IMG/VR virus record: IMGVR_UViG_2541047705_000011 | Length of the DNA stretch: 42,469 bases | From: a virus | Lineage: Duplodnaviria; Heunggongvirae; Uroviricota; Caudoviricetes | Strand: one strand, 5' to 3' | Shown here: positions 3,369 through 37,258 of the stretch, in pieces | How the letters are laid out: each line of letters begins with the position of its first letter | Position numbering within the stretch: the stretch's first letter is position 1 | Made by a program: the position numbers and the translations under genes | Notes under the pieces: model-generated | Databases searched by the model: none | Seen by the model: the letters and a program-made list of their open reading frames with translations, nothing else | What the model was told of the DNA's origin: nothing

Positions 3369-3395
3369 CCCGCAATATTTTGCGGGCTTTTTTTT
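3369..3395 (+). terminator. Hairpin plus T8, canonical only in plus orientation, at tailspike 3' end
   Basis: CCCGCAA-TATT-TTGCGGG then C and T8; the T-run overlaps the tailspike stop codon; no plus-strand CDS upstream. Confidence 0.45.
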
Positions 3396-6300
3396 AACGT
3401 TCTTCCAGAGACTGAACCCGCTCTTTTATCTTATCCATTTCTCTGCGCTGCCATGCTGCCTCGATATAGAATAAGAGATCAGGTCTGACCCCCCATCTAG
3501 ATCCTGCTGGCGTTATTTCAACGCGCTCAATGATGTCTTCCATTACCATCACTGGATTATCATCCTCATCAACAATGATGCTCCCGTCATTATCAGTCAG
3601 CGGCATTTCCCTTTGGCCAGTAATGACGTCATCATATACTGCGGGATAATCGTCATAGCAAAGAAAGGCATAGCGGCATGTTGTGCTTTCTTCTTCCATG
3701 AGTCCGTGAGAAATAAGAACATCACGAAGTTGCTGCGCGATTACACCATGATGTATCCTCGCCCCTTCTTCCCCCTTTATAGCGACAGCGTTCAGCCATT
3801 TATAAGCGATATACCTGACGTCACCCCAGGCATCCAGCAATGCTTCGTCAGGAGAGACCGGCTCTGTCTTTAATGTTCCGTCACTGGTAACCACAGGATT
3901 GGAGCCAAGATAAACTGTCGAGAACCTGTTTCCCGGACCACCAAGAGCATTTACATTATCAAGATAAGGTTTAACATCTCCGTTCTCAAAAAGATGTTCG
4001 AGTGCGTTATATACCGCGCGACGTGGAGTACTGCTTCCGGAACCATGCAACGTTATCATTGCACCATCTGCTGAAGACGTTGTTTCACCTCCGCTAACGA
4101 TTAATCTCTGAGCGGTAACATCATCAGACGGTACTTTCTTCGCAATAATGGCGTAATTACCCTCAAGTTTGACTTCCGCGCGAACTTGTCCTGATGTACC
4201 TGCATGGACAGTCAGTGACTGGACGGCAACATCATCTGTGAAATCAACGGGTACAGGAACCGTCCTCACGCCTGACGTCGACATAAAAGTAGGAAGCGTT
4301 CTGTTAGGAGTGGCTCCGTAGACAAAATCCCTTGAAACAAATTCTTCCTGTTTAATTTTCACCCTGAAACAATACAAATCAGCCGGGTGACCATCGTGAA
4401 CATAAGGATATTTTCTGTTGTTATCCCCTATGCTCCATGGGTTTAGAAAGTCTTCCCCACCGAAAATGTAGTACAGCCAGTTGTCTTTGATACAAACTGA
4501 ACCAACACCAACCGCAGAGTTAACTATTCCGCCCTGATAAATCTGATCAGTAACATTAACCCACTCTACATTATCCAGACTCCACTCATTGACGTTAACT
4601 CTGGTCATAAATGTTCTTGGATAATTTCCTGCATAACGGTTATCAGGTTCTCCTCCTTCCCACTCACCAAATGCGCGCTCACTGCCAAAAATAATCAGCT
4701 CATCGCCAACTTTGGCAAAAGGAAGGTTTGAGTGATGAACATTATTTGGGAAGCGAAGAGAATTCCATGATGTACCTAAATCAGAGCTTCTGTGCAATGA
4801 ACTACCGGGTTGAGTACTTAATGTCCCCCTGGTCGTCAGATACAGAATGCCATCATAATATTTTACACATGGCTCAGATGCATTCGCCTCATATTCTGCA
4901 GGTATGCGTCTGCGAACAAAGCTACCAGGAGAACCGAAAGCATCAGAGAAATAGAGTATCCCAAGCTCGCGTGGACCAATATCACCATTATGGTAGCCAA
5001 CAGCAAAACTGTTATCGCTAATCGTCGCAAAACTGTGAATCTCAGTAACAGGAGTGCTTCCGTCAACAAAAGAAGGAATAGTTCCAAGACTGGTTTTTCT
5101 CCATGGTGACGAGTGAAATGATGTACCAAAACTCCAGTATCTACCCTCGTTATTCTGATCCACATCCTGGGTATTTTGCGTCGTAACTGTAAAAGTATTT
5201 TTATCAATAACAGTAGTCACCGTCATATTCCCGGTAACACCTGTAACACCAGAGTTTGAGAAGTTGACAAAATCACCAGCAAATAATCCGTGATCAGTAA
5301 TGCGAATATAAGCGACTTGCTGATTTGCTGCTTTCGTTATACCACCATAAACGCGAAGGCTGCGACTCATTGGGCGATCCCACAACTCTGCAACCTGCAG
5401 TTTATTTCCGCTCACGGTCCGCGTCTCAATTACAGCAAAAAGGCGATTTCTGACAACCCCCATACTCATGCAGTGATAGTTAACTGTGGGATAGTTTTCA
5501 TGTAAATCTGTAAGCCATTCCGGCGTTGTCCAGGTCTTCCCGTCATCTCCTGAGCGAACCCATGCAACATGGAGGTTATTTACACCATGGCGGTCTCCAG
5601 CCATAAAAGGCGCATAGATGACATTGTCATATACAAACGTTTTATCCTGCGTCCAGGCGTTGTACCACGGTGTATCTGTAATTTTAAATAACTCTCCCTG
5701 GATAAAATCTTCAGAAGCATAAAAAAGAGGCTGGCCCGGTATTCTCTCAAATAAAAAACGAGCATTTTTAAATCGACTGACATCCGGAAGAGTTGATACT
5801 TTAAAAGTAAGCCCTAATCCGTCAATTTTATAACCTGGAGATGAGGCTTCAAGGCACGCGCTTATTGCAGTGGAATCGTCATTTATACCATCACCAACAG
5901 CTCCAAAATCTTTGGGGCTAATAGCATCACGCATTTTATCCTGGAACGTTCGGTACACAGCCCCAGAACCATACTGAATAAACCAACCAAAACCACCAAC
6001 AACCCCGGCGATTGCAGCATCGACATAATTACGCATTGAGCGATTATTTACAGCGTCCTGCTCAAATGATGGATCTGCAAGGTTAGAAATTTTGTTTTGC
6101 TTTGCATCGTAATATTTTGCAAGCAAAGATGGTTTCATCAATGCACGTCTGAACCACCCAAAACATTGCTGGATCAGCATCGTCAGGTAGTCAAAGGCAT
6201 CTTCATGCACTTCGGGGAAAAATTTTCCCTGATTGCGAAGGTCTGTCTCCTGCACTACATCAAGCACACGATCTATCGTAATTCGCCATCCAGTAGCAAG

Positions 6301-6513
6301 CGGAGACGGAAGAACCACAGAACCGCCACTATAAGTGCCCGCCCCAGTTACCGTATAACCGGTATCCAGAACCAATTCTGTTACGTTCCCGTTCAGGTCA
6401 GACACCTGAACAACCAGGTCTGATTTTCTGAAAATTCGAAAAGTATACGGAAACGATGTCGTAACGCCGTTACCGGTGTATTCGTTGTGGTCAACTTCGG
6501 TTGAGACCGTCAT
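3394..6513 (-). CDS. Tailspike, endosialidase-like (endo-N-acetylneuraminidase) with C-terminal intramolecular chaperone
   Basis: 1039 aa; N-terminus has T7 tail-fibre-like pattern YxGxG..F..F..LVV; two Asp-boxes SGDDGKTW and SSDLGTSW; C-terminal SDGTLK and HHGVIAQQLRDV resemble the autocleaving chaperone of endosialidases. Confidence 0.7.
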   Translation of the reverse strand: MTVSTEVDHNEYTGNGVTTSFPYTFRIFRKSDLVVQVSDLNGNVTELVLDTGYTVTGAGTYSGGSVVLPSPLATGWRITIDRVLDVVQETDLRNQGKFFPEVHEDAFDYLTMLIQQCFGWFRRALMKPSLLAKYYDAKQNKISNLADPSFEQDAVNNRSMRNYVDAAIAGVVGGFGWFIQYGSGAVYRTFQDKMRDAISPKDFGAVGDGINDDSTAISACLEASSPGYKIDGLGLTFKVSTLPDVSRFKNARFLFERIPGQPLFYASEDFIQGELFKITDTPWYNAWTQDKTFVYDNVIYAPFMAGDRHGVNNLHVAWVRSGDDGKTWTTPEWLTDLHENYPTVNYHCMSMGVVRNRLFAVIETRTVSGNKLQVAELWDRPMSRSLRVYGGITKAANQQVAYIRITDHGLFAGDFVNFSNSGVTGVTGNMTVTTVIDKNTFTVTTQNTQDVDQNNEGRYWSFGTSFHSSPWRKTSLGTIPSFVDGSTPVTEIHSFATISDNSFAVGYHNGDIGPRELGILYFSDAFGSPGSFVRRRIPAEYEANASEPCVKYYDGILYLTTRGTLSTQPGSSLHRSSDLGTSWNSLRFPNNVHHSNLPFAKVGDELIIFGSERAFGEWEGGEPDNRYAGNYPRTFMTRVNVNEWSLDNVEWVNVTDQIYQGGIVNSAVGVGSVCIKDNWLYYIFGGEDFLNPWSIGDNNRKYPYVHDGHPADLYCFRVKIKQEEFVSRDFVYGATPNRTLPTFMSTSGVRTVPVPVDFTDDVAVQSLTVHAGTSGQVRAEVKLEGNYAIIAKKVPSDDVTAQRLIVSGGETTSSADGAMITLHGSGSSTPRRAVYNALEHLFENGDVKPYLDNVNALGGPGNRFSTVYLGSNPVVTSDGTLKTEPVSPDEALLDAWGDVRYIAYKWLNAVAIKGEEGARIHHGVIAQQLRDVLISHGLMEEESTTCRYAFLCYDDYPAVYDDVITGQREMPLTDNDGSIIVDEDDNPVMVMEDIIERVEITPAGSRWGVRPDLLFYIEAAWQRREMDKIKERVQSLEER

Positions 6514-6616: not shown

Positions 6617-6633
6617 ATTACCTTTCAGGTAAT
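6617..6633. promoter_or_regulatory. Operator-like palindrome ATTACC-TTTCA-GGTAAT (perfect)
   Basis: Perfect 6-bp inverted arms, 5-bp spacer; between tailspike start and the LexA-box gene. Confidence 0.6.
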
Positions 6634-6689: not shown

Positions 6690-6708
6690 ATTGCATGGAG
6701 AAGATAAG

Positions 6709-6966
6709 ATGCAGCAGTATCACTATCCACTGGAAGACGGATTTACCGAAAGGATTCACACGCCGGGAGGCGTCAGGTCACTGGTGGAGGGATCGCACTT
6801 GATGAAATTACTCCGGGATCTCGATAAGGATGGATTTAATGTCGATGGCCCACTTGCCGAACTGACTGCACTGATTAACTACGTCACCAGCTCACAGATG
6901 TCTATGCAGGATCTGCAAACACATCTCGACTATTGTGCCGAACAATTACGAAAACAAACCCGGTAA
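6709..6966 (+). CDS. Small antirepressor-like protein (homologous to C-terminal domain of the BRO antirepressor at 8113-8805)
   Basis: 85 aa from ATG 6709 (track ORF starts at TTG 6691); RBS GGAGAAG; aligns with the last ~60 aa of the BRO protein. Confidence 0.6.
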   Translation: MQQYHYPLEDGFTERIHTPGGVRSLVEGSHLMKLLRDLDKDGFNVDGPLAELTALINYVTSSQMSMQDLQTHLDYCAEQLRKQTR

Positions 6967-6972
6967 ATTTAA

Positions 6973-6990
6973 AGGCCGCAAGAGCGGCCT
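6973..6990 (-). terminator. Hairpin terminator between convergent genes
   Basis: AGGCCGC-AAGA-GCGGCCT; T-rich on minus strand downstream; overlaps the 6989-7717 stop codon. Confidence 0.45.
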
Positions 6991-7717
6991 ATCGTTTCGC
7001 TTTGTGCTCGTCCCAGCACGTTTTGCACCATGCCATTAAGCCGTCCGCATTTTGATTATTAGGGTAAAAGCTGGTCCGTTTTCTGCGGACATTACAAATT
7101 GGGCACCACTTCATATGGCGTGTATTCTTTGGACCATCGAGACACCTTGCACACCACTTAGTCAATCCATCTGGATTTTTTGACGATTTCCGGAATTTGT
7201 CATATGGAAGGTTTATTCTGCATCGCAAACACTGCTTGCGGCCACTTGAAACTCTGTTAGCTGATTCTTCTTTTGGCGGCGATACAGAAGGTATTCTTGC
7301 TGGCTCTGATACTGCCTGAGGTGCTTTTTTAGATGACTGAGACGATATGTCATCACCAGGGAATCTTCCATGATATGCCGGACGCGTTGACACTCCAGGT
7401 GGAAGCTCAGCTGTAAACGGCTTTGGCTGAATCAGTTGCCTCTCTTTTGCTAACTCCTGCTGTTTATAATATGTCTGGATTACCGCACTATCATAAGCAG
7501 GAGGTACGGAAATATCAGGCGCGTTACCTCCAGTTTTTTGAAACTGAGTAGATGTGTGTTCTATCACCTGTGTACGACTAATCGTTACCTCCCCATCTTC
7601 GGTCTTTATCGTTTTGTTCTGATTAACGACCGTACGATCAGAGATCTTAGTCTTGTTCTGGTTGATAACGTAAATAATCACCGCAACCACACCAACAACT
7701 ATCCAGAAAACTTCCAT
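6989..7717 (-). CDS. Membrane-anchored protein with two C-terminal zinc-ribbon repeats, unknown function
   Basis: N-terminal TM helix, Pro/Ser-rich linker, then CLRC..x22..WCARC and CPIC..x21..WCKTC; RBS GAGGAAAAG. Confidence 0.6.
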   Translation of the reverse strand: MEVFWIVVGVVAVIIYVINQNKTKISDRTVVNQNKTIKTEDGEVTISRTQVIEHTSTQFQKTGGNAPDISVPPAYDSAVIQTYYKQQELAKERQLIQPKPFTAELPPGVSTRPAYHGRFPGDDISSQSSKKAPQAVSEPARIPSVSPPKEESANRVSSGRKQCLRCRINLPYDKFRKSSKNPDGLTKWCARCLDGPKNTRHMKWCPICNVRRKRTSFYPNNQNADGLMAWCKTCWDEHKAKR

Positions 7718-7785: not shown

Positions 7786-7807
7786 AATCAACCAAATACG
7801 GTTGATT
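7786..7807. promoter_or_regulatory. Second-type palindrome AATCAACC-N6-GGTTGATT
   Basis: Perfect 8-bp inverted repeats with 6-bp spacer, between two ATTACC/GGTAAT sites. Confidence 0.4.
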
Positions 7808-7829
7808 TTAATATTTCTTCGCGTTTATC

Positions 7830-7846
7830 ATTACCTTTGCGGTAAA
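7830..7846. promoter_or_regulatory. Operator-like palindrome ATTACC-TTTGC-GGTAAA (11/12 arms)
   Basis: Same motif family; upstream of structured leader and BRO gene. Confidence 0.5.
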
Positions 7847-7864: not shown

Positions 7865-7958
7865 TGTGCCATAGTAATCGGGCACTGGCAAAATCCAGTG
7901 CCGGGATTGGTCTCCCGGATTACTACAGAGGCACATATGCCGCATAAGCGGTTTTTTT
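7865..7958 (+). other. Candidate structured RNA/leader: three-way junction fold followed by short hairpin and T7 run
   Basis: Nested complementarity TGTGCC/GGCACA, GTAATC/GATTAC, GGCACTGG/CCAGTGCC, GGGA/TCCC; then CCGC-ATAA-GCGG plus TTTTTTT; about 155 nt upstream of BRO start. Confidence 0.3.
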
Positions 7959-8112
7959 ATGTGTAAAGCGCACCTATTCTATGGTGGGCTGTGTGGGGGC
8001 ACCGAAAGGTGCGCCGGGTTCCTTTGTAGCCGGTAAGACCAACTCTGCACAGTTCACCACCATCTGATTGGTCTCAGCGGTGGTGATTAACCTAACTACA
8101 AAGGTGATCGCT

Positions 8113-8805
8113 ATGAATACCAAACCTTCCATCTTTTCCTTTGAGTCATCCTGCCAGATCCGTATGTTCATGATTGACGGAGAACCTTGGTTTGTCACCA
8201 AAGATGTGTGCAATGCTTTGAATATTGATGTTACACAAGCGAGAAAACTTGATAAAAAAGGCTGGAACAAAAAGGGGCTGTATTCAATACAGACCCCTGG
8301 TGGAATACAAGAACTATCCATCGTTTCAGAATCAGGTCTCTACATCCTTATTCTGCGTTGCAAAGAGGCAATGACTGAGGGAACGAGAGCATTCAGATTT
8401 CTTGAATGGGTTACAGGTGAGGTTCTTCCTCAGATCCGCCGCACCGGAAGTTACATTAAAAACTCGCTCCCGCAGGAAGAACGCATAAAGATGGTTGCCG
8501 ACCAGGTAGCCAACGCCACGGCGTCAGCAGTAATGCAGGCGATGAAGATAGAGAACAAAACCTACAGTGCCCCACTGAAGCCCGGCTACCGTAGCCTGAT
8601 TCATTCGCCGTCTGGTGTTCTCGGCCTGACGGAGAACTCACTGCTGATGAATCTGCTGAACCAGTTACAGGACGACGGGCACGACGTATCGGGCGCGGCG
8701 GCGGAGCTGACCACCATGTTCTGCTACATCGTCGGTGTGAGCAAATGCCTGCGTGATATCCAGACCCACGCGGAGTACATCAACGACAAGGCAGGGTTCT
8801 TCTGA
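8113..8805 (+). CDS. BRO-N domain antirepressor
   Basis: BRO-N motif FSFESSCQIRMFMIDGEPWFVTKDVCNAL; RBS AAGGTGA; start trimmed to ATG 8113; C-terminal domain homologous to the 6709-6966 protein. Confidence 0.75.
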   Translation: MNTKPSIFSFESSCQIRMFMIDGEPWFVTKDVCNALNIDVTQARKLDKKGWNKKGLYSIQTPGGIQELSIVSESGLYILILRCKEAMTEGTRAFRFLEWVTGEVLPQIRRTGSYIKNSLPQEERIKMVADQVANATASAVMQAMKIENKTYSAPLKPGYRSLIHSPSGVLGLTENSLLMNLLNQLQDDGHDVSGAAAELTTMFCYIVGVSKCLRDIQTHAEYINDKAGFF

Positions 8806-8875
8806 CGGCGGCGGCACAGGGACGTGCCTTTAAATAATTCTGTACAGATTGCAGACTGGGGGTGAATAGCGTACT

Positions 8876-8892
8876 ATTACCTCAAGGGTAAG
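8876..8892. promoter_or_regulatory. Operator-like palindrome ATTACC-TCAAG-GGTAAG
   Basis: 11/12 arm match; 59 nt upstream of the 8951 start. Confidence 0.5.
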
Positions 8893-8950
8893 AAAGCATT
8901 TTTAATCTTCCCTTCAAAACGCGTCCTGTAGCCAAACATGGGAGGACGAA

Positions 8951-9583
8951 ATGAGAACAAATACAACAAGAAAAGCGATGCCATACATTATCCCAGAAGC
9001 AGATTTCGATAGAAAACTGAACATGTCTGAGAAGAACACTAGTCACACCGAAAGCTACTTAGCGAAAGGTGTGGTTGATTTCGTTCTTCCGGGATTCACA
9101 ACACCTTATGGTTATCGCCTTGTAAAATCTTGTAATGGCGATCATTACAGAATGATTACTACCAGCGATACTCCAGAAACGGTGTATGCGGTTAAGTTAA
9201 TCTTTCGGGAAGATATCGTCGAAGCCAAAAGAACATGTACGCAGATCATGGTATGGCGTACGCCTAATGTTATTCATGACCGTGCTGTTCATGGTTTGCC
9301 TCAGATTTTTTTTCAGTTCTTCCTAGAGCAATATGCGATCGTTGTATCTGATGAGCAACAAACAATCGATGGGAGAAGATTCTGGGAAAGAATGATTTCT
9401 TGGGCTATAAACACCCCGGGATATAATGTATACGTTTCAGATGGCTCTGAAGAAGATAGACCTCTTAGCTTCATGACATCATGGGATGATTTCTATAGCC
9501 AGTGGGCTGATTTCTGTTGGGGCAGTGATAAAGATGTGCATACCCACAGACTACTGGTTATAAGCAAAGATAAACTGCATTAA
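8951..9583 (+). CDS. Hypothetical protein (210 aa), accessory/moron gene, no recognisable family
   Basis: ORF track; RBS GGGAGG; AT-rich; flanked by operator-like site upstream and terminator downstream. Confidence 0.6.
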   Translation: MRTNTTRKAMPYIIPEADFDRKLNMSEKNTSHTESYLAKGVVDFVLPGFTTPYGYRLVKSCNGDHYRMITTSDTPETVYAVKLIFREDIVEAKRTCTQIMVWRTPNVIHDRAVHGLPQIFFQFFLEQYAIVVSDEQQTIDGRRFWERMISWAINTPGYNVYVSDGSEEDRPLSFMTSWDDFYSQWADFCWGSDKDVHTHRLLVISKDKLH

Positions 9584-9588
9584 TAGAA

Positions 9589-9609
9589 GCCCGCAGCGCG
9601 GGCTTTTTT
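9589..9609 (+). terminator. Rho-independent terminator
   Basis: GCCCGC-AGC-GCGGGC followed by T6. Confidence 0.75.
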
Positions 9610-9681: not shown

Positions 9682-9843
9682 ATGAAAAAAGCATTTGCTG
9701 CACTGTTCGTTTTGTTGTCTCTGGTAGCTTCAACTCAGGCCTTTGCCGGTCGTTGTCAGCACGACAGCGATACTGCCGCTGACGGCTCCCGCTGCGGTGG
9801 GCGTTCTGCGGATTCCCGCCCGGGTGGCGGTGGCATTCGTTAA
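9682..9843 (+). CDS. Small secreted Gly/Arg-rich peptide (53 aa)
   Basis: Start at MKKAFAALFVLLSLVASTQAFA (signal peptide); putative promoter TTGACG-N16-TATAGA upstream; ORF-track N-terminal extension discarded. Confidence 0.45.
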   Translation: MKKAFAALFVLLSLVASTQAFAGRCQHDSDTAADGSRCGGRSADSRPGGGGIR

Positions 9844-9866: not shown

Positions 9867-9878
9867 GTGACATGTCAC
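9867..9878. repeat. Perfect 12-bp palindrome GTGACATGTCAC (copy 1 of 3)
   Basis: Overlaps lipoprotein stop codon; identical copies at 28357-28368 and 30808-30819. Confidence 0.8.
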
Positions 9879-10255
9879 GCAACGCAATTATTACCGCGCC
9901 ATGTAACATTTTTAATAATCTTATCAGCACCAAACTCAACGTAAACAGAGCAACTGAAATGGAGTGTATAACCGCCATCAGTTGTTGCGTATGTGTTTGA
10001 ATATATAGTATTACCAATTAGATTAGACGTAGTATTATACGTTGTGGTTTGTGGTACGTTATAACTACCAGAGCTTGAGTAAACATACACTCTGTTTCCA
10101 TCTGGAGATGTAAGCTCTCCCTGAGGATACCCCCACTGCTGAACCATTGCGTCTATACTCTGCCCGCGCCACGTAAGCATATTTCTTTCAAACTGTGCAA
10201 CTGACTGGCATCCAACGAGAAGCATAAATCCAAAAATCAAAAATACTTTTCTCAT
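9875..10255 (-). CDS. Lipoprotein (126 aa), candidate superinfection-exclusion/moron protein
   Basis: Start MRKVFLIFGFMLLVGC (lipobox); RBS AGGGG; Thr/Ser/Tyr/Asn-rich mature part; IS1 lies 66 bp upstream of its start. Confidence 0.6.
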   Translation of the reverse strand: MRKVFLIFGFMLLVGCQSVAQFERNMLTWRGQSIDAMVQQWGYPQGELTSPDGNRVYVYSSSGSYNVPQTTTYNTTSNLIGNTIYSNTYATTDGGYTLHFSCSVYVEFGADKIIKNVTWRGNNCVA

Positions 10256-10375
10256 AATTACCCCTATCATGGAAAAACAGCACCAATCCACAAATTAACT
10301 AGTTATTTTATTATTCTTCCGGTGATGCTGCCAACTTACTGATTTAGTGTATGATGGTGTTTTTGAGGTGCTCCA

Positions 10376-10651
10376 GTGGCTTCTGTTTCTATCAGCTGTC
10401 CCTCCTGTTCAGCTACTGACGGGGTGGTGCGTAACGGCAAAAGCACCGCCGGACATCAGCGCTATCTCTGCTCTCACTGCCGTAAAACATGGCAACTGCA
10501 GTTCACTTACACCGCTTCTCAACCCGGTACGCACCAGAAAATCATTGATATGGCCATGAATGGCGTTGGATGCCGGGCAACCGCCCGCATTATGGGCGTT
10601 GGCCTCAACACGATTTTACGTCACTTAAAAAACTCAGGCCGCAGTCGGTAA
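10376..10651 (+). CDS. insA: IS1 InsA
   Basis: Sequence recognised as IS1 InsA ([32 protein letters not shown]...). Confidence 0.95.
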
Positions 10652-11073
10652 CCTCGCGCATACAGCCGGGCAGTGACGTCATCGTCTGCGCGGAAATGGA
10701 CGAACAGTGGGGCTATGTCGGGGCTAAATCGCGCCAGCGCTGGCTGTTTTACGCGTATGACAGTCTCCGGAAGACGGTTGTTGCGCACGTATTCGGTGAA
10801 CGCACTATGGCGACGCTGGGGCGTCTTATGAGCCTGCTGTCACCCTTTGACGTGGTGATATGGATGACGGATGGCTGGCCGCTGTATGAATCCCGCCTGA
10901 AGGGAAAGCTGCACGTAATCAGCAAGCGATATACGCAGCGAATTGAGCGGCATAACCTGAATCTGAGGCAGCACCTGGCACGGCTGGGACGGAAGTCGCT
11001 GTCGTTCTCAAAATCGGTGGAGCTGCATGACAAAGTCATCGGGCATTATCTGAACATAAAACACTATCAATAA
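10570..11073 (+). CDS. insB: IS1 InsB reading frame (expressed as InsAB' fusion by -1 frameshift)
   Basis: Sequence recognised as IS1 InsB; slippery TTAAAAAACTC upstream in the InsA frame. Confidence 0.9.
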
Positions 11074-11117
11074 GTTGGAGTCATTACCTATTCTTCCGAA
11101 CAATACAATTCCGAATA

Positions 11118-27657: not shown

Positions 27658-27734
27658 GTGGCATTAGCTCAGTCGGACAGAGCAACCGCCTTCTAAGCGG
27701 TTGGTCGCAGGTTCGAATCCTGCATGCCACGCCA
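27658..27734 (+). tRNA. Phage-encoded tRNA-Arg (anticodon UCU)
   Basis: 77-nt cloverleaf: acceptor GTGGCAT/ATGCCAC, D-stem GCTC/GAGC, anticodon stem ACCGC/GCGGT with loop CTTCTAA, T-arm GCAGG-TTCGAAT-CCTGC, discriminator G, encoded CCA. Confidence 0.9.
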
Positions 27735-34089: not shown

Positions 34090-34106
34090 TTTACCCATGA
34101 GGTAAT
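34090..34106. promoter_or_regulatory. Operator-like palindrome TTTACC-CATGA-GGTAAT
   Basis: 3 nt upstream of the DUF1064 start codon. Confidence 0.5.
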
Positions 34107-36553: not shown

Positions 36554-37138
36554 ATGAAAAGTATCCAGGACGTCCGCAGGCAAAATCTCAACGACTTGAT
36601 CGACCGTGAATTCAATGGTGTTCAGACGCGGATGGCAGAAAAACTTGGAACTCAGGCAAATCTGGTAAACCGCTGGGCTCTTGGCAAGAAGGTTATCGGC
36701 GACCAGGTTGCGCGAAAAATTGAAGCTGCCGCCAATAAACCCCGTAACTGGCTTGATATCGATCGCTCGCTTTCTCAGGAAGGTTTTCAGCCTGTCGGCC
36801 CAAGCGACATTGGTCAGCTGGCGGCTCACAACCTGGAACGCTGGATGAGCGAAAGCCGCGACCTTTCAACACAGGGAAAACTTCACCGCGCATCCGGCGT
36901 CGCCCAGGTGACAATCAGCCGCCTGTTAAACAATGAGGTCAGCGTTTCCATTTCCACCCTGGAGAATGTTGCATCCGCATTCGGGCGTCACGGATATGAA
37001 CTACTGATTCACCCGCACGACCCTGCGACTATCAACTATGACCGCTCGCGCTACGCATTGTTACCCGAAACCGAGAAAGCAAAGATCGAAAGTTACATTG
37101 AATTTGTCATCAACCAGAACGAAAAAAACAAACAATAA
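36554..37138 (+). CDS. CI-like repressor with two HTH domains and no recognisable S24 peptidase domain
   Basis: 194 aa; HTH segments TRMAEKLGTQANLVNRW and LHRASGVAQVTISRLLN; no Ser-Lys autocleavage module seen; weak SD. Confidence 0.65.
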   Translation: MKSIQDVRRQNLNDLIDREFNGVQTRMAEKLGTQANLVNRWALGKKVIGDQVARKIEAAANKPRNWLDIDRSLSQEGFQPVGPSDIGQLAAHNLERWMSESRDLSTQGKLHRASGVAQVTISRLLNNEVSVSISTLENVASAFGRHGYELLIHPHDPATINYDRSRYALLPETEKAKIESYIEFVINQNEKNKQ

Positions 37139-37229: not shown

Positions 37230-37258
37230 TTGACATCAAACCAGATACGCATAATTAT
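37230..37258 (+). promoter_or_regulatory. Early promoter for the plus-strand early operon
   Basis: -35 TTGACA, 17-bp spacer, -10 AATTAT; flanked by operator-like palindromes. Confidence 0.55.

Follow-up and report, generated by a model that had tools for sequence, protein, structure and literature searches.

A putative operator-controlled cargo slot in an epsilon15/phiV10-like prophage of Escherichia coli and the predicted GNAT-like fold of its phrog_1349 cargo

The DNA analysed here, referred to as the window, is the complete 42,469-nt viral record IMGVR_UViG_2541047705_000011, an epsilon15/phiV10-like podovirus prophage of Escherichia coli integrated beside yfgI. This study concerns the plus-strand gene at 8951-9583, which codes for a 210-aa protein of the family phrog_1349, and the expression signals that surround it. 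Since related phages keep these signals around other genes, we take them, on sequence comparison, to be backbone signals of a reusable cargo slot in which 8951-9583 is one interchangeable cargo. An original prediction had presented the gene as an AT-rich stand-alone accessory gene, isolated in a minus-strand late block. The open reading frame (ORF), its strand and length and its AT-richness are confirmed: its GC content is 40.9% (37.9% at third codon positions, GC3) compared with 48.8% for the whole window, and its neighbour, the antirepressor gene ant, has 49.5% (GC3 58.9%). The gene is not isolated; it is a member of a small plus-strand islet situated between the tailspike gene and the gene of an 824-aa virion protein. 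The slot and the elements discussed with it comprise the following features:

8068-8805, plus strand: upstream neighbour, Bro-N antirepressor (Ant); a weak hairpin (8814-8828) follows its stop codon, then the slot promoter
8849-8854, plus strand: candidate -35 element TTGCAG of the slot promoter, with a 17-nt spacer to TACTAT; kept in TL-2011b and phiv142-3
8872-8877, plus strand: candidate -10 element TACTAT; its final T doubles as the initial T of the operator core TTACC
8876-8892, no strand assigned: putative operator ATTACC-TCAAG-GGTAAG, ATTACCTCAAGGGTAAG, 59 nt 5' of the ATG; marks the left cargo junction
8941-8945, plus strand: Shine-Dalgarno sequence GGAGG, 5 nt 5' of the ATG; kept in homologous loci
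8951-9583, plus strand: cargo coding sequence, 210 aa, ATG start, phrog_1349; predicted GNAT-like fold, predicted cytoplasmic
9585-9609, plus strand: intrinsic terminator; 10-bp, GC-rich stem 9585-9594/9598-9607, AGC loop, T-run to 9609
9682-9843, plus strand: downstream backbone gene of a 53-aa secreted or membrane-associated protein, phrog_14503; follows the terminator whichever cargo is present
36554-37138, plus strand: candidate trans-acting repressor, 194 aa, with tandem helix-turn-helix (HTH) motifs and without an S24 peptidase domain; operator pairs on both sides

The cargo slot and its presumed control by the phage repressor

Phage TL-2011b is near-identical to the window from the ant stop codon through promoter and operator and diverges directly after GGTAA (8892). 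Identity returns at the terminator stem AGCCCGC...GCGGGCTTTTTT, at about position 9588, and runs on into the gene of the 53-aa protein, which places the cargo interval of the window at about 8893-9587; the terminator is thus part of the backbone and bounds the cargo on the right. In TL-2011b the slot is occupied by a 59-aa ORF and a YafO-family toxin (Pfam, E = 8e-6; locus L088, 4034-4733), in EC.W1-9 by overlapping ORFs of 108 aa and 167 aa, the longer of which ends in a hydrophobic tail and is taken to be membrane-anchored (locus L143, 4264-5065), and in phiv142-3 by small ORFs (locus L144, 3141-3617). Promoter, operator and terminator are common to the three phages despite the different cargo. 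All slot variants retain the operator half-sites, with different 5-nt spacers between them (TCAAG, CGATT, TAAAG, TTACG). Neither the slot nor the gene is present in phiV10. The left flank of the slot was detected (80% coverage or more) in 324 complete E. coli genomes and the cargo gene in 93, in agreement with an accessory character.

The terminator is as strong as had been supposed (-15 to -17 kcal/mol, z = -2.9; it is absent from the output of a consensus scanner), but as an element of the slot it does not belong to the gene. Within the slot 8951-9583 is monocistronic, with no second ORF from the end of the operator at 8892 to the terminator at 9585. Residues M10-P11 of the protein are invariant and some homologues begin there, and position 8978 is therefore a possible alternative start. 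A leader hairpin that might sequester the Shine-Dalgarno sequence (CGTCCT...AGGACG, 8922-8948) had seemed conserved among homologues when judged by eye; it was rejected, as the probability of the Shine-Dalgarno sequence being paired was 0.64 compared with 0.63 in shuffled leaders (34 loci). No known RNA element was detected near 8890-8950 (Rfam, E <= 1).

The ATTACC-N5-GGTAAG site 59 nt upstream of the gene had been regarded as an operator of the gene itself. The site is real and beyond chance expectation, but it is a phage-wide element. With at most one mismatch, TTACC-N5-GGTAA occurs 13 times in the window compared with 0.82 expected, a number reached by none of 100 shuffled sequences; the longer 17-mer operator gives 29 strand-matches (up to two mismatches) against 2.2 expected. 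All 13 sites (6618, 7738, 7831, 8877, 27321, 30511, 30529, 34091, 34153, 36436, 36484, 37196 and 37258) are intergenic and lie at regulatory positions. The putative repressor gene is flanked on the left by 36436/36484, a pair situated between it and a divergent cro-like gene, and on the right by 37196/37258; further sites precede the ant/C4 unit (7831), the gene of a 91-aa protein (6618), a tRNA-Arg gene (27321), the resolvase and replication genes (34091, 34153) and the terminase region (30511, 30529). Because of the excess over expectation and the clusters around the tandem-HTH repressor gene, the TTACC-N5-GGTAA family, 8876-8892 included, most likely represents the operators of the main phage repressor.

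The overlap of operator and -10 element seen at 8877 is repeated at 7831 (TTGATT-18-TATCAT, ant/C4), at 37258 (TTGACA-17-AATTAT, early-right) and, on the minus strand, at 34091; the promoter at 7831 was also picked up by a consensus promoter scan. A promoter-like arrangement is present at 13 of the 26 oriented operator ends compared with 1.7% of random positions, an excess that is in part built in, as the outer AT of the operator supplies two positions of the -10 element. A repressor bound at 8876-8892 would cover the slot promoter from -10 to about +10. Since the operator overlaps -10/+1, the cargo is predicted to be silent in the lysogen, and the gene is probably off during stable lysogeny.

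Phage P1 has dispersed C1 operators and an immI operon composed of c4 RNA, icd and ant. The window resembles P1 in that one operator is found in many copies before early, accessory and antirepressor units and in that a C4-type antisense RNA lies upstream of ant; it differs in operator sequence and repressor type and in being an epsilon15-like podovirus. The thirteen dispersed sites, including those before the terminase region, thus have the appearance of a P1-like design with one repressor for many scattered units. A similar 17-bp operator is said to be described in the epsilon15 genome paper.

The operator was also considered as a private site of 8951-9583, which was rejected because it is phage-wide and shared with other cargo. 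The opposite description, a purely backbone feature, is true only in part, as the site also accompanies the homologues of phage LLS, Symbiopectobacterium and Serratia. In a Symbiopectobacterium prophage the palindrome ATTACCTGATAGGTAAT precedes the homologue, and in Serratia prophages TCACCATTTAGGTAA is found before it, within the spacer of a TTGAAA-17-TAGTAT promoter. The site before the homologue is decayed in epsilon15-like phages of Enterobacter and Klebsiella. The simplest reading of these sites would be that gene, promoter and operator spread out of epsilon15-like phages and that the operator decays without its cognate repressor.

Protein family, predicted fold and homologous loci

The 210-aa protein is matched from end to end by the hidden Markov model of phrog_1349 (PHROG, annotated as of unknown function; E = 3e-113, all 210 residues on profile positions 1-210), and the 85 wider relatives all match this model as well. 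A word-indexed search returned 63 close clusters, all from Enterobacterales and all labelled hypothetical, and a full profile search gave 903 representatives at E <= 1e-3, mostly of about 200 aa; the resulting family size of about 900 refers to clusters at 50% identity. No transmembrane segment was found in the protein (maximum 19-residue hydropathy 1.05). In an alignment of 85 sequences drawn from the 903 representatives, W102 is the only invariant residue; N29, Y79, D134, W145 and W190 are conserved to at least 90%, and the consensus blocks are TQVxVWR, SDxxQTxxGxRFW and WG. The weak R-x5-H pattern WRTPNVIH, pointed out in the original prediction, overlaps the invariant W102 and the conserved R103, but H109 is not conserved in the wider family and the pattern was rejected as a catalytic signature. 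No paper in the literature names WP_001260052, and the literature on GNAT proteins in prophage defence provided analogies only.

The supposed lack of a known family holds at the level of sequence, where there is no annotation and profile searches were negative, but the predicted structure is recognisably GNAT-like. Two AlphaFold2 models were obtained, with mean predicted local distance difference test (pLDDT) values of 79.5 and 89.8 and predicted template modelling (pTM) scores of 0.77 and 0.82, respectively. The predicted structure fits the GNAT fold, a mixed sheet beta1-7 with the helices alpha1-4 and a beta4/beta5 splay, and its nearest solved structures are the C-terminal domain of Rv1916/ICL2 (8g8k, 6edw), Schizosaccharomyces pombe NatD (4ua3) and Hat1 (1bob). 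Elements of the better model follow the order alpha1-alpha2-(beta)-beta2-beta3-beta4-alpha3-beta5-alpha4-beta6-beta7 and are completed by a C-terminal helix-strand extension; they were assigned as beta4 96-103, alpha3 107-128, beta5 130-134, alpha4 139-153 and beta6/beta7 159-164/172-175. From this order we infer the GNAT register of the model. On that register, conserved residues would close beta4 (W102, R103) and beta5 (S133, D134) and mark the beginning of alpha4 (Q137, T138, G141, R143, F144, W145). The cofactor and catalytic cleft of GNAT enzymes is found at these positions. The likeness to the GNAT superfamily would thus extend from the predicted fold and the element order to the position of the family-conserved residues. 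Two candidates for motif A were noted, A112-V-H-G115-L-P117, which is topologically right and is paired with the RimI motif in an hhalign match without significance, and Q137-T-I-D-G141-R-R; neither fits Q/R-x-x-G-x-G/A exactly. We consider the assignment of a GNAT-like fold, as predicted by the models, reasonably secure; catalytic activity of the predicted protein is not secure.

Close homologues are lone genes at every locus, each with an intrinsic terminator of its own and of unrelated sequence. In phage LLS the homologue lies after Rz/Rz1 at the genome end, in Serratia prophages among tail genes beside Arc and a P22-type antirepressor; on Citrobacter contigs with P1-type tail and baseplate genes it separates the baseplate genes from an SLT-domain gene and is read from the opposite strand. 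It adjoins an antirepressor gene on several further viral contigs, so that antirepressor adjacency recurs across several unrelated phage backgrounds. In E. coli the gene was found in prophages only. Chromosomal homologues have a position that is fixed within a genus and different between genera, in the following settings:

Enterobacter/Leclercia/Lelliottia/Silvania, 16 species: MmyB-type regulator, the gene, nitroreductase and TetR
Photorhabdus, 7 loci: phosphotransferase system (PTS), the gene, hda
Proteus, 6 loci: ThiD-like kinase, the gene, PagP
Morganella, 5 loci: filamentous haemagglutinin, the gene, C69 peptidase
Providencia, 4 loci: dapA and bamC, the gene, purC
Xenorhabdus, 3 loci: ppc, the gene, metF

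These copies have strong extended -10 promoters (TGnTATAAT-type) and no operator. As the locus is different in every genus, the gene was presumably acquired repeatedly and not inherited from a common ancestor. In the Enterobacter group (L052-L070) the gene is convergent to the nitroreductase gene, which is nfsB-like by eye, and in TL-2011b the slot holds the YafO cargo. E. coli yafO belongs to the dinB-yafNOP operon and lies beside the GNAT gene yafP, which has been linked to nitro-aromatic genotoxins; this parallel may be coincidental.

Distant members of the family occur in other architectures. On a phage-like metagenomic contig a 359-aa fusion to a ScoMcrA-type SRA domain follows an overlapping Phd/YefM antitoxin gene (locus L091, 3823-5080), and because of this position the family domain may be a toxic effector there. 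Another relative carries the N-terminal domain of MqsA as its fusion partner. An E. coli paralogue of 270 aa, fused to DUF5397, is situated in a variable island near ygbA (STEC434, locus L142, 5350-19997; locus L141) together with a HipA-family toxin, an RNA-directed DNA polymerase (reverse transcriptase) and a 1282-aa AAA-like protein; the island of locus L141 also holds a TacA antitoxin and its GNAT-like partner.

Possible roles of the cargo protein

The reading that we prefer, tentatively and with less than even confidence, is that an epsilon15/phiV10-like K1 prophage holds 8951-9583 as exchangeable cargo in a slot under repressor control and that the gene codes for a GNAT-type acyltransferase made at the time of derepression. 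The slot directly follows the antirepressor gene and consists of a sigma-70-type promoter (TTGCAG-17-TACTAT), the operator 8876-8892 and the terminator 9585-9609. The tandem-HTH repressor (36554-37138) would bind this operator; the cargo would be silent in the stable lysogen and would be transcribed together with ant and the early operons upon induction or fresh infection. The product is predicted to be a soluble protein of 210 aa with a divergent GNAT fold, a member of the uncharacterised family phrog_1349. With low confidence, we assume that it might be an acyl-CoA-dependent acyltransferase and modify a protein or else a small molecule once the cell is derepressed or infected, that its role might be conflict-related, either counter-defence or competitor exclusion, and that the gene might have been captured from, or be shared with, the lone chromosomal genes of Enterobacterales.

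Several points weigh against this reading. Searches of Pfam, NCBIfam, PADLOC and PDB sequences with the protein alone and with profiles of 42 and 85 sequences gave no match, and neither the protein nor any of the 85 relatives matched the GNAT models of Pfam (Acetyltransf_1/7/10 and related; E <= 0.1). Comparison by hhalign with RimI and with a TacT-like GNAT was insignificant (probability 0.2-0.4); for RimI, represented by a single sequence and by a 17-sequence alignment, only near-identical homologues were found and the profile was hence poor. A canonical Q/R-x-x-G-x-G/A loop is not clearly present, the usual catalytic Tyr or Glu is not assignable, and the protein could be a non-catalytic GNAT-like binder. 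On the side of regulation, binding of the repressor to the operators is deduced solely from site positions, and the slot promoter is weak, its -35 element matching the consensus at 3/6 positions only, which is why it is missing from the consensus promoter scan. The lambdoid phage LLS carries GTACTATTACC-CAGAA-GGTAA before its homologue as the sole perfect site in 42.9 kb; since the LLS repressor is unrelated, the operator may travel with the gene and be a non-functional passenger there. Finally, the strong promoters and the genus-wide synteny of the chromosomal copies argue for a cell-autonomous, possibly housekeeping-like role.

The layout had been interpreted as typical of single-gene defence or conversion morons. 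Morons such as sieA in the immI region of P22 have their own promoter and terminator and an odd base composition, and classic morons are expressed from the repressed prophage. The present gene is moron-like as a single AT-rich unit of deviant composition, flanked by promoter and terminator, that lies between backbone genes beside an antirepressor module and is absent from close relatives. It differs from classic morons in that its promoter carries the operator of the phage repressor and in that promoter, operator and terminator are backbone elements reused by different cargo. Use in conversion or in defence of the lysogen runs counter to an operator on the promoter, and since this operator overlaps -10/+1 of the only, shared promoter, a role in lysogenic conversion is disfavoured. 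A moron that protects the lysogen on its own by anti-phage defence or superinfection exclusion, for example an abortive-infection effector triggered by an incoming phage, is rather unlikely in our view. It would be in agreement with the presence/absence polymorphism in a variable slot, where a toxin-antitoxin-like module is an alternative cargo, with the foreign base composition, with the classic moron positions of homologues elsewhere (LLS after Rz/Rz1, the gap between baseplate and SLT genes, the Serratia tail genes), with the distant paralogue in a defence/toxin-antitoxin island and with the SRA-domain fusion in toxin position behind a Phd/YefM antitoxin. Yet the operator predicts repression in the lysogen, just when defence must be on, and there is no partner gene. 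PADLOC-DB 2.0 gave no match for the protein at E <= 1, and three unrelated single matches with E > 1e-3 for the 85 relatives. Moreover, defence genes are patchy, whereas syntenic copies of this gene are found genus-wide between core genes (dapA-bamC/purC, ppc/metF, PTS/hda). A defence role is possible, but searches of defence models gave no support for it.

The chromosomal copies point in another direction, namely to an ordinary enzyme of Enterobacterales (e.g. for detoxification or modification of a metabolite) that temperate phages carry as a host-derived auxiliary gene with no part in phage-host conflict. Lone chromosomal genes with a strong TGnTATAAT-type promoter and a terminator of their own at conserved positions in six groups, the predicted GNAT-like fold and the large family of about 900 clusters at 50% identity would suit such an enzyme. 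The different locus in each genus indicates repeated acquisition, however, and the gene is never in an operon with metabolic genes, is prophage-only in E. coli and recurs beside antirepressors as an accessory gene of four or more unrelated types of phage. We regard this explanation as unlikely, yet the chromosomal copies, with their stable position in each genus, keep it a serious candidate. Less probable still is a GNAT-like protein that works through binding and not through catalysis, for instance by inhibiting a host or phage protein, by serving as a decoy for one, or by sensing acyl-CoA in the manner of the Mycobacterium tuberculosis ICL2 C-terminal domain. The missing canonical motif A, the missing Pfam acetyltransferase signal and the one relative fused to the toxin-binding N-terminal domain of MqsA could be explained in this way, but the conserved polar residues R103, D134, Q137, T138 and R143 cluster at the cofactor and catalytic region of the GNAT cleft, a pattern that suits an active site better than a binding surface.

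Among known systems, a comparable protein is AcrVA5, a phage-encoded GNAT acetyltransferase that inactivates Cas12a (PMC10799925). Both are small stand-alone phage accessory proteins with an acetyltransferase fold, predicted in the present case, and no partner, and AcrVA5 is a precedent for counter-defence by acetylation; AcrVA5 has about 90 aa compared with 210 aa here, and no sequence match or specific structural match between them was found. To our knowledge, the E. coli hosts do not carry Cas12a. GNAT toxins of the TacT/AtaT/KacT type differ in that no RHH/DUF1778 antitoxin gene is adjacent to 8951-9583 or to its homologues, and the strong promoters of the lone chromosomal copies argue against intrinsic toxicity.

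Target and biological role of the 210-aa protein are speculative. We favour a conflict function at induction or infection because of the toxin as alternative cargo, the ant neighbourhood and the toxin-antitoxin and defence-island contexts of distant relatives. Carried further, phrog_1349 proteins would form a new class of single-protein conflict effectors, divergent GNAT acyltransferases acting on a component of host defence or of a rival phage, with the slot beside ant as a dedicated exchange site for induction-coupled weapons, toxin modules among them; in this broad form the idea has a low probability. If it applied, epsilon15-like phages would make the phrog_1349 protein only when derepressed or freshly infecting.

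Databases already list the gene product as a hypothetical protein, and neither morons nor GNAT folds are unusual in themselves; new are the assignment of a fold to a sizeable family so far without annotation and the definition of a cargo slot, from operator to terminator, in common E. coli prophages. If correct, about 900 clusters of 'hypothetical' proteins of about 200 residues would gain a fold and a testable active site (W102, R103, D134, Q137, T138, R143), and the epsilon15/phiV10-like prophages of hundreds of E. coli genomes, among them K1 strains and Shiga toxin-producing E. coli (STEC), would have a defined cargo slot, with the operator on the left and the terminator on the right as anchors for the cataloguing of accessory genes. 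Repressor-controlled cargo would also point to accessory genes of a kind that becomes active upon induction or infection, and such induction-time cargo bears on the conflict of prophages with host defences and competitors. The finding would be routine if the gene turned out to code for an ordinary acetyltransferase and to lack any phenotype related to the phage.

Surroundings of the slot in the prophage

In addition to the genes described above, the window codes for T7-gp14-like core proteins and a capsid staple protein. The tailspike (3394-6513) bears an endosialidase beta-propeller domain and is so annotated in matching genomes, including the O7:K1 strain CE10 and APEC O1; we therefore consider the window to be a K1-capsule-specific member of the epsilon15-like group. 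The islet consists, in this order, of the gene of the 91-aa protein, a minus-strand gene of a 242-aa protein, isrK and C4 RNAs, the Bro-N antirepressor gene, 8951-9583 and the gene of the 53-aa protein. The first of these (6691-6966) repeats the C-terminal domain of Ant (residues 162-243; phrog_450) as a separate gene and has an operator of its own at 6618. The 242-aa protein (6989-7717, phrog_6762), with operator 7738 at the start of its gene, has an N-terminal hydrophobic segment and C-terminal Cys-rich repeats that resemble the zinc ribbons of Stc1, endonuclease VII or Lar.

Upstream of the Bro-N antirepressor gene, an isrK RNA (7882-7958, 74.7 bits) and a C4 antisense RNA (7977-8064, 78.6 bits) were detected. 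The region 7869-8064 corresponds to the P1-type immI arrangement, in which the match to the a1/b1 target (7869-7921) is sub-threshold; it is preceded by the putatively operator-gated promoter TTGATT-18-TATCAT at 7802-7831.

Beyond the gene of the 53-aa protein lie a lipoprotein gene on the minus strand (9875-10291) and then IS1 (10321-11088), which is 99-100% identical to IS1 of P1, SfIV and others and splits the lipoprotein gene from the 824-aa virion gene. Strain 2015C-4944 (locus L001) has neither the lipoprotein gene nor IS1 at this place. Elsewhere in the window, the tRNA-Arg(TCT) gene (27658-27734) is situated about 320 nt downstream of operator 27321 and a TTGACA hexamer, and because of these upstream elements it may be repressor-controlled too.

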